Sequence record: MK817115.1
Reading direction: 5' to 3' (one strand)
Length of the DNA stretch: 64,000 bases
Source of the DNA: Escherichia phage vB_EcoM_phAPEC6
Position 1 is the first letter of the stretch. Each line of letters opens with the position of its first letter. The notes under the pieces are model-generated. The model was given only the letters and a program-made list of their open reading frames with translations, searched no databases and was not told where the DNA came from. Both the position numbers and the translations under genes were made by a program. This document shows, piece after piece, positions 62,971-63,474 of this stretch.

Positions 62971-63474
62971 TTATTTTACTTTGACAGTACAGGTTACCTT
63001 TTTACCTTGGAACTCGACTTTTTGAACATATGAAACGTTACCCAAACGATTAACGAATGATTCCATTGCATTAATATTTGCTTGAATTACTGATGCATTA
63101 GTTCCACGTCCTGAAGTTTTCATTACAATATGTACATGTTTTCCTTCATCAAGGAATTTTTCAGCACTTTTTGCTTTAATCTGCAAATCGTGCTCTTGTG
63201 TACCAAAGTTAAATTGAATCTCTTTAATACTCACGGCATTTTGTCGTTGTTTTTTAAGAGAAGCCTTTTCAGCTTGCTTCAACTCATATTTGTATTTGTT
63301 AAGATCTGTAATTTTGACAGCAGGTTCATCACCTGCACCAATAACCACCAAATCCAATCCTTGATTTTCTGCTAAAGTAAGTGCTTTAGAGATTGCCATG
63401 ACCTCACTTGCACCTTCCGTAACAAGACGTACAGTTTTTGCGGTGATTTCGTTATTGGCAATAATAGATTTCAT
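62971..63474 (-). CDS. infC: translation initiation factor IF-3 homolog (167 aa)
   Basis: Near full-length colinear similarity to bacterial IF-3 (VRLV...LDLVVI...EPAVKI...VSIKEIQF...). Confidence 0.8.

Follow-up and report, generated by a model that had tools for sequence, protein, structure and literature searches.

In a window of 64,000 nucleotides from Escherichia phage vB_EcoM_phAPEC6 (MK817115.1), the open reading frame (ORF) at positions 62971-63474 is confirmed here as a genuine two-domain copy of translation initiation factor IF-3, with matches far beyond chance. We consider it probable that the gene makes a working, full-length IF-3 under host-type expression signals, outside the autoregulation of the host gene, and that this protein enlarges or takes over the IF-3 pool of the cell, with a start-codon loop that is probably somewhat different. 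Part of this explanation is that IF-3 was fixed long ago in the RaK2-like jumbo-phage lineage. The gene is already known: its annotation and discussion go back to about 2012-2017, dozens of GenBank records carry it and at least four papers have pointed it out, and the general role proposed here is one already in the literature. What this study adds is the expression signals, the purifying selection, the gene triad and the altered loop in one divergent clade. The features of the gene, in positions of the window, are as follows.

62971-63474, minus strand: IF-3 coding sequence, 167 amino acids, ATG at 63474-63472, stop included (ORF list)
63262-63456, minus strand: N-terminal domain, residues 7-71 (Pfam IF3_N)
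63238-63303, minus strand: lysine-rich linker helix, residues 58-79 (DSSP on the AlphaFold2 model, and alignment)
62980-63234, minus strand: C-terminal 30S-binding domain, residues 81-165 (Pfam IF3_C, residue table and Foldseek match to 1tig)
63103-63120, minus strand: loop K119-T-S-G-R-G124, counterpart of E. coli 129-RFRGRE-134 (sequence and residue table)
63519-63547, minus strand: perfect sigma70-type promoter of IF-3
63485-63488, minus strand: Shine-Dalgarno sequence GGAG

The identity of the protein is supported by both sequence and structure. The preliminary description of this DNA had reported an IF-3 homolog of 167 amino acids with both domains, without giving a strand; the ORF is found exactly at those coordinates, on the minus strand, and the profile searches, of which that description had proposed those with IF3_N and IF3_C as a check, place all three IF-3 models above their curated cut-offs. 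Pfam IF3_N (PF05198) matches residues 7-71 with 58.9 bits (E 5.8e-16, gathering score 26.9), IF3_C (PF00707) matches residues 81-165 with 51.8 bits (E 8e-14, gathering score 34.8), and the NCBIfam equivalog model for infC, TIGR00168, matches the full length with 110.4 bits (E 7.5e-32, cut-off 60). PHROG 9787, "translation initiation factor", matches end to end (E 6e-71), and the only significant sequence matches in the PDB are to IF-3, the best being to E. coli (8jsg_A, 3.2e-17) and T. thermophilus (5lmn_X, 4.3e-17). An AlphaFold2 model built on 33 homologs has a mean predicted local distance difference test score (pLDDT) of 87.7. It consists of an alpha/beta N-domain, the linker helix, and a C-domain with the order beta-alpha-beta-alpha-beta-beta. 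Foldseek agrees with this assignment, giving TM scores of 0.69-0.78 against full-length IF-3 in 30S complexes (5lmn_X 0.69, 9ss1_F3 0.73) and TMt values of 0.84 and 0.76 against the isolated domains 1tig (C-domain) and 1tif. An ORF on the opposite strand within the gene (63130-63375, plus, 81 amino acids) was dismissed as spurious, being a low-complexity F/L-rich mirror of the K/E-rich coding strand.

Compared with the bacterial factor (InfC, E. coli b1718), the phage protein has the same two domains, basic helical linker, core residues and contacts to the tRNA elbow. It differs in lacking the 14-residue N-terminal tail, in a shortened loop around Q33 (a position that is variable among IF-3s), in a linker helix longer than that of E. 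coli by two residues in the alignment, and in having KTSGRG in place of RFRGRE. The near-universal IF-3 positions, in E. coli numbering, are all kept: N16, I19, R25, D52, L53, K66, Y75, K94, E95, D106, K110, F117, G121, G132, R133 and G167. In phage numbering the C-domain residues kept include D96, K100, F107, G111, G122 and R123. Basic character is also retained at E. coli positions 112, 116, 129 and 168, where K replaces R. R25 and R66 of the N-domain contact the elbow of the initiator tRNA, and their mutation reduces fidelity (PMC9723500). Their counterparts in the phage protein are R16 and K54. At the first of these positions R is present in 28 of the 30 relatives that share 50% identity or more with the phage protein and stand nearest to it, and at position 66 K is the most frequent residue in other IF-3s.

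The signals in front of the gene are of the host type. The promoter matches the consensus at 12 of 12 positions, with TTGACA at 63547-63542, a 17-nt spacer and TATAAT at 63524-63519. It ends 44 nt before the ATG, and GGAG lies 10 nt before the ATG. In an alignment with phages 121Q, A4, RaK2, Munch, GAP32 and XbC2 the -35 and -10 hexamers, GGAG and ATG are conserved over four phage genera, and the spacer sequence has diverged; GGAG is found in all seven aligned phages, shifted by MAFFT by one or two columns in three. The window contains 12 perfect TTGACA-N16-18-TATAAT sites (between 1982 and 63547), all on the minus strand, against a chance expectation of 0.19, and therefore host-type promoters are a real feature of this phage. 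Nine of the 12 end 32-47 nt before a Shine-Dalgarno sequence and ATG. For the other three, the next called start is 93, 95 or 175 nt away, or in one case a tRNA-Thr lies 292 nt downstream. Two smaller observations concern these sites: several of them (1982, 5945, 6294) share a GTACTG or CAGTA-like motif in the spacer just upstream of the -10 hexamer, and the TGA stop of the 64-amino-acid ORF upstream of IF-3 (63544-63738, minus strand) falls inside the -35 hexamer (63542-63547) of the IF-3 promoter.

The cellular gene is organized differently. In E. coli, infC starts with ATT and belongs to the thrS-infC-rpmI-rplT operon, and the AUU start codon underlies the IF-3-dependent autorepression of the host gene. 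The phage gene instead starts with ATG and has its own promoter and phage neighbours. The operon and the AUU start are traits of the cellular gene and do not define the protein family. Because its start is AUG and not AUU, the phage gene would stand outside host autorepression. On the coding strand, no terminator-like site was found between IF-3 and the next gene, which begins 13 nt downstream and encodes a protein with a ClpS fold; co-transcription of the two is therefore likely.

The phage IF-3 gene is under purifying selection. Among seven phage orthologs the ratio of nonsynonymous to synonymous substitution rates (dN/dS, Nei-Gojobori) is 0.11-0.29, with synonymous sites mostly saturated, and the least saturated pair, GAP32 and XbC2, gives 0.14 at a dS of 0.94. 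At E <= 0.001, an exhaustive search with HMMER gave 5,660 relatives. The nearest are metagenomic proteins, part of them encoded on contigs of 90-620 kb. A neighbour-joining tree of 203 sequences places the RaK2-like IF-3s in a single clade of 50 tips, which includes many metagenomic members on contigs of 300-600 kb; E. coli, Agrobacterium phage Atu_ph07, Sinorhizobium phage Phosso and the huge phages of the LR756xxx records are outside it. With E. coli IF-3 the phage protein shares about 30% identity, and with that of Phosso 37%; the Phosso protein is itself 47% identical to E. coli IF-3. Scores against the infC model are 286 bits (285.7) for E. coli, 195 for Phosso, 181 for LR756511, 180 for LR756501, 155 for Atu_ph07, 110 for the phage studied here and GAP32, and 90 for RaK2. 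The tree and the scores indicate that phages acquired IF-3 more than once. The IF-3s of Atu_ph07 (AUZ94813.1), Phosso, LR756511 and LR756501 are likewise phage-borne and full-length, and they are separate acquisitions that stand nearer to bacterial IF-3. By these comparisons the RaK2-like IF-3 is an old version, the most divergent one, and not one recently taken from enterobacteria. Recent capture from an enterobacterial host was considered and is ruled out by the low identity to E. coli IF-3 together with the monophyly of the clade. GenBank notes give unrelated best bacterial matches for the gene, namely Megasphaera and Hydrogenobacter.

A clear departure from the bacterial sequence is in the loop that inspects the start codon. 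In E. coli IF-3, R131 of this loop inspects the pairing of codon and anticodon. The RFRGR motif of IF-3 sits against the start codon, and R131 touches mRNA base +4 (PMC11775629). In the phage, the reverse complement of 63103-63120 reads AAA ACT TCA GGA CGT GGA, so that the motif is K-T-S-G-R: R131 is replaced by S, F130 by T, and E134 is also altered. In none of the 50 tips of the RaK2-like clade is position 131 basic, nor is it in the nearest sister groups; S, V, A, T, I, E or Q is found instead. Among other IF-3s it is R or K in about 80%; roughly a fifth deviate, so RFRGR is a functional motif and not an absolute criterion of membership. The other phage IF-3s have different loops (RFKGR in Atu_ph07 and Phosso, EYKRR in LR756511, FFSGR in LR756501), and the altered loop is therefore a trait of the RaK2-like lineage and not a general one of phage IF-3s. 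Since K-T-S-G-R stands in place of R-F-R-G-R, the phage protein probably proofreads somewhat differently from host IF-3, and likely with less stringency.

Putting these observations together, we suggest the following course of events. Host RNA polymerase would transcribe the phage IF-3 gene early or midway in infection, together with the downstream ClpS-fold gene. In phage CBB, RpoD-like promoters have been interpreted as marks of early genes (PMC5259590). With its AUG start, phage IF-3 could escape the autorepression that caps host IF-3 levels. The protein would bind the platform of the host 30S subunit, supplementing or taking over the IF-3 pool. A larger pool would keep 30S subunits free through anti-association and recycling, and the 30S initiation complex might then form faster while phage mRNAs flood the cell.

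Several points weigh against this interpretation. In CBB, the IF-3 region has a divergent class of promoter that is tied to DNA-synthesis genes (PMC5259590). According to the annotation of its relatives, the phage also encodes a sigma70-family factor of its own, which bears on the timing proposed for host polymerase. A further point concerns the C-domain of IF-3, in which eight arginines serve 30S binding. Three of them (E. coli R99, R131 and R147) are non-basic in the phage protein, with R99 and R147 falling at positions that are variable among bacterial IF-3s too. Identity of about 30% and a score of 110 bits, against 286 for E. coli and 155-195 for the other phages, could also mean an altered activity. 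Lastly, our literature search found no experimental study of any phage IF-3, and 30S binding and activity are here predictions.

The preliminary description put forward the idea that phage IF-3 could reprogram initiation. Under this idea, which we regard as a minority possibility, the protein is a proofreader of relaxed or altered specificity that shifts start choice to phage mRNAs. Reprogramming toward phage mRNAs is a hypothesis already in the literature, and as judged from sequence the altered loop is the only new hint in its favour. Position 131 is non-basic throughout the clade, with F130 and E134 altered too, and substitutions at this site have known consequences. With R131P in E. coli IF-3, non-AUG codons, leaderless mRNAs and initiator tRNA altered in the 3GC pairs are all used more in initiation; mycoplasma IF-3s have P, F or Y at position 131; and the mitochondrial KKGK motif in place of RFRGR relaxes discrimination (PMC11775629). 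Expression independent of host autoregulation also fits this idea. The phage protein shares with R131P, mycoplasma IF-3 and mammalian mitochondrial IF-3 the loss of arginine 131. However, those systems pair the change with starts other than AUG, with leaderless mRNAs or with initiator tRNAs of an unconventional kind, and the window showed none of these. Against reprogramming, too, are the deviations at position 131 in about one fifth of other IF-3s and the intact RFKGR of Atu_ph07 and Phosso.

Start codons, leaders and tRNAs were examined for anything on which a relaxed proofreader could act. A crude gene call, limited to this window, gave 139 ORFs with 91.5% of the DNA coding. It has 124 ATG starts (about 89%), 9 TTG and 6 GTG, and about half of the non-ATG calls look spurious, seven being on the plus strand (six without a Shine-Dalgarno match) and one overlapping tRNA genes. 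GUG and UUG are canonical starts accepted by IF-3. Outside the called genes the window has no stop-free stretch without an early ATG, GTG or TTG, and non-canonical starts accordingly have no support, as every ORF has a canonical one. The preliminary description had cited several genes with non-AUG starts and tightly coupled starts in support of reprogramming. The former does not hold up against these counts, and the latter, with 41 of 125 junctions overlapping or abutting, is ordinary for phages. Leaderless phage mRNAs have no support either, because all 12 perfect promoters lie at least 32 nt from the next start, with a Shine-Dalgarno match. A phage initiator tRNA was rejected. The candidate, a CAU tRNA at 22612-22701, pairs G1 with C72 and has C-G at 11-24, and its anticodon stem, GCCGA/UCGGU, is without the three G-C pairs, so it is not an initiator of the bacterial type. 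Thus, from the sequence examined, the altered loop would be left as the sole basis of the idea.

Two neighbours of IF-3 form a triad with it.

62412-62957, minus strand: ClpS-fold protein, 181 amino acids, starting 13 nt past the IF-3 stop and probably co-transcribed
61795-62340, minus strand: KTSC-domain protein, 181 amino acids, third member of the triad (Pfam KTSC, 51.8 bits)

Asteriusvirus, Alcyoneusvirus, Mimasvirus and phage Munch all share one gene order: Dda helicase, a structural protein, the 64-amino-acid ORF, IF-3, the ClpS-like gene, KTSC, virion proteins and topoisomerase II. The triad is kept in a metagenomic relative with 46% identity (L013-L015) whose downstream genes differ, and the ClpS-like gene adjoins IF-3 in every relative examined. 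In sequence the ClpS-like protein is marginal (Pfam ClpS 24.7 bits against a gathering score of 23; PDB match at E 0.17). Its fold is clear, with an AlphaFold2 pLDDT of 85.1 and a Foldseek match to E. coli ClpS (2wa9_G) of TMt 0.92 and a root mean square deviation of 1.2 A over 83 residues. The protein extends this fold by a beta/alpha domain of about 65 residues at the N-terminus, specific to the clade, and by a helix at the C-terminus. N34, D35, D36 and H66 are the N-degron pocket residues of E. coli ClpS; in a weak HMMER alignment (E 0.17) the phage protein has D for N34, keeps D35, and has P for D36 and N for H66. Labels for these neighbours vary. RefSeq and PHROG name the ClpS-like gene "ATP-dependent protease", which is misleading, and the KTSC protein is called "DnaJ-like" in 121Q and "structural protein" in XbC2; in phage A4 its gene is divided over two ORFs. 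A role in defence or anti-defence was also considered, and PADLOC gave no match for IF-3, the ClpS-like protein, KTSC or the small upstream ORF.

Clp genes recur beside initiation factors elsewhere. IF-3 is directly downstream of a bona fide ClpX in Atu_ph07 and Phosso (whose IF-3s, besides keeping RFKGR, have GTG starts as annotated, and ClpX instead of ClpS as neighbour), and in the bacterial assembly GCA_028279185.1 one IF-3 is downstream of a ClpC-type ATPase. The clpS-clpA genes of E. coli K-12 adjoin infA (IF1) and aat. The loci with such adjacency are these.

L008, 155-2001: Clp/initiation-factor adjacency
L009, 173-1995: Clp/initiation-factor adjacency
L016, 1387-4654: Clp/initiation-factor adjacency
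L018, 2914-7433: Clp/initiation-factor adjacency

In the huge phages LR756511 and LR756501, IF-3 is without a Clp neighbour, and the literature search found incidental co-mentions only, with no published link between IF-3 and Clp. The adjacency recurs, and we do not take it as mechanistic evidence.

If the loop and the triad are taken together, a bolder version of the reprogramming idea can be formulated, in which the phage swaps the proofreader of start sites. An IF-3 without R131 would displace the host IF-3 and inspect the P-site codon less strictly or differently, favouring phage messages. Expressed from a host-type promoter, IF-3 would then head a three-gene module through which host IF-3, or another 30S-bound factor, is possibly sent to ClpAP. 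If this were true, the adjacency of IF-3 and ClpX elsewhere would reflect a general functional coupling of initiation-factor replacement with Clp-mediated remodelling. We find the swap doubtful. More broadly, a proofreader that is deliberately relaxed or biased toward the phage, and that possibly works together with the ClpS-fold adaptor, has as its support one motif and gene adjacency, and we place it between doubtful and a minority possibility.

Phage IF-3 might, alternatively, be an inhibitor instead of a helper and serve to shut off the host, with excess or dominant-negative protein occupying the 30S platform and blocking or slowing 50S joining on host messages. The strong consensus promoter and the absence of an autoregulatory AUU start are compatible with excess, the sequence is divergent, and in vitro some initiation events are inhibited by IF-3 in excess (PMC11775629). 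We nevertheless regard this as quite improbable. Conservation extends to the contacts with the tRNA elbow and to the two-domain architecture, both required for a productive cycle, and phage mRNAs are built with Shine-Dalgarno sequence and AUG like host mRNAs. With the same architecture on both sides, a general block would hurt the phage too.

Very improbable, in our assessment, is a module for proteostasis or ribosome rescue in which IF-3 acts with the ClpS-fold adaptor and the KTSC protein. In one variant ClpAP receives host IF-3 or another factor bound to the ribosome, for which the phage copy substitutes; in another, stalled or hibernating ribosomes are cleared. That the triad is kept in four genera, and also in the metagenomic relative with 46% identity, speaks for such a module, as do the confirmed ClpS fold and the independent occurrence of IF-3 after ClpX in two phages and after a ClpC-type ATPase in a bacterial assembly. 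In addition, Iyer et al. (2021), who described IF3 and the KTSC protein in group 2.2 jumbo phages, proposed ribosome rescue for both (PMC7824862). However, the argument is one of adjacency only, the ClpS-like pocket residues are partly changed in the weak alignment, two huge phages have IF-3 without a Clp neighbour, and the literature offers no connection between the two. Finally, a functionless passenger, decaying after capture from a host, would fit the low infC-model score relative to bacterial IF-3s, but is effectively refuted already by the intact frame, by length, promoter, Shine-Dalgarno sequence and ATG conserved in all relatives, by dN/dS well below 1, by the retained universal residues and confident AlphaFold2 model, and by the age and monophyly of the clade.

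We turn to how widely the gene occurs. At the DNA level the region shares about 94% identity with Escherichia phage 121Q and with some 30 of its relatives, among them PBECO4, Sharanji, SP27 and G17. All of these, and the phage studied here, are members of Asteriusvirus, a genus of RaK2-like jumbo myoviruses that measure about 350 kb. The protein shows 100% identity to 121Q gp47 (AIT13944.1), deposited as "translation initiation factor IF3", and equally to its counterparts in Sharanji (WNN14575.1), SP27, G17 and slurp01; in Sharanji, SP27 and slurp01 the gene is named infC. Identity is 69% to RaK2 and 52-59% to the group of GAP32, CBB, XbC2 and Munch. The RaK2-like homologs thus include 121Q gp47, the PBECO4 protein, Sharanji WNN14575.1, RaK2 ORF153, GAP32_313 and CBB_318, gathered in PHROG 9787. 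They are the same gene in the same synteny and nothing material differs; compared with 121Q there is no amino-acid difference and a single synonymous base. The wider segment 59443-63738 compares with 121Q as a mosaic, in which the 64-amino-acid ORF, IF-3 and ClpS-like genes are 99.8-100% identical, KTSC 92.9%, two virion genes 83.9% and 87.2%, and topoisomerase II 94.8%. This pattern suggests recombination or very uneven constraint.

The preliminary description held that IF-3 is not a common phage gene. This stands for phages overall, as tblastn matches were found in 94 of 50,697 phage records, part of them bacterial contamination, but fails for the RaK2-like jumbo phages, in which the gene is universal and has been annotated, in RaK2 and GAP32, since first deposition. 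The novelty that was implied is overstated, because the gene has long been annotated and discussed in print. Buttimer (2017) described an IF-3 of CBB and named homologs of it from GAP32, 121Q, PBECO4 and Rak2 (PMC5259590), Al-Shayeb (2020) mentions phage IF-3 with translation takeover as the proposed role, and the 2025 Sharanji paper states that IF-3 function in phages "cannot be definitively stated" (PMC11895373). Among the contaminating records, contig 14 of Acinetobacter "phage" MD-2021a (CAKLQH020000014.1) is bacterial, carrying thrS-infC and housekeeping genes. The 2-kb Listeria and Enterococcus "phage" records with IF-3 matches are probably bacterial too, and a Pseudomonas contig end is also among the doubtful matches.

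As a gene, phage IF-3 has little significance of its own, being named identically in dozens of GenBank records and having its own PHROG family. Its value is as an experimental target, since IF-3 governs the ribosome's choice of start sites and of tRNA. The RaK2-like IF-3s combine conserved 30S- and tRNA-contact residues with a uniform loss of R131, a predicted escape from autoregulation and a ClpS-fold neighbour. If it is true that the altered loop shifts start-site selection, they would provide a clean natural case in which a virus supplants a factor that guards the fidelity of host ribosomes.

Some further observations concern other parts of the window. Within positions 1-25000 relatives annotate an RpoD-like sigma70-family factor near a tRNA cluster and many short ORFs; in CBB, a region of that kind is interpreted as early (PMC5259590). 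The CAU tRNA at 22612-22701 (minus strand, 90 nt), annotated as tRNA-Met in relatives, is present in only 8 phage records and has no match in E. coli. It has a class II-style variable arm of about 17 nt, an arm which among bacterial tRNAs is confined to Leu, Ser, Tyr and Sec. It also has A73, C4-G69 and C5-G68, and a T-loop UUAGAAU with A56 where C56 is usual. The pairs C4-G69 and C5-G68 are TilS determinants, so the molecule could be an AUA-reading tRNA of the Ile2 type. Next to it, at 22709-22800 (minus strand, 92 nt), is a tRNA-Ser with the anticodon ACT (ACU). Bacterial Ser tRNAs that read AGY codons normally have GCU. According to the Sharanji paper, these phages encode a tRNA adenosine deaminase (PMC11895373), which raises the question of whether A34 of this tRNA-Ser is edited.

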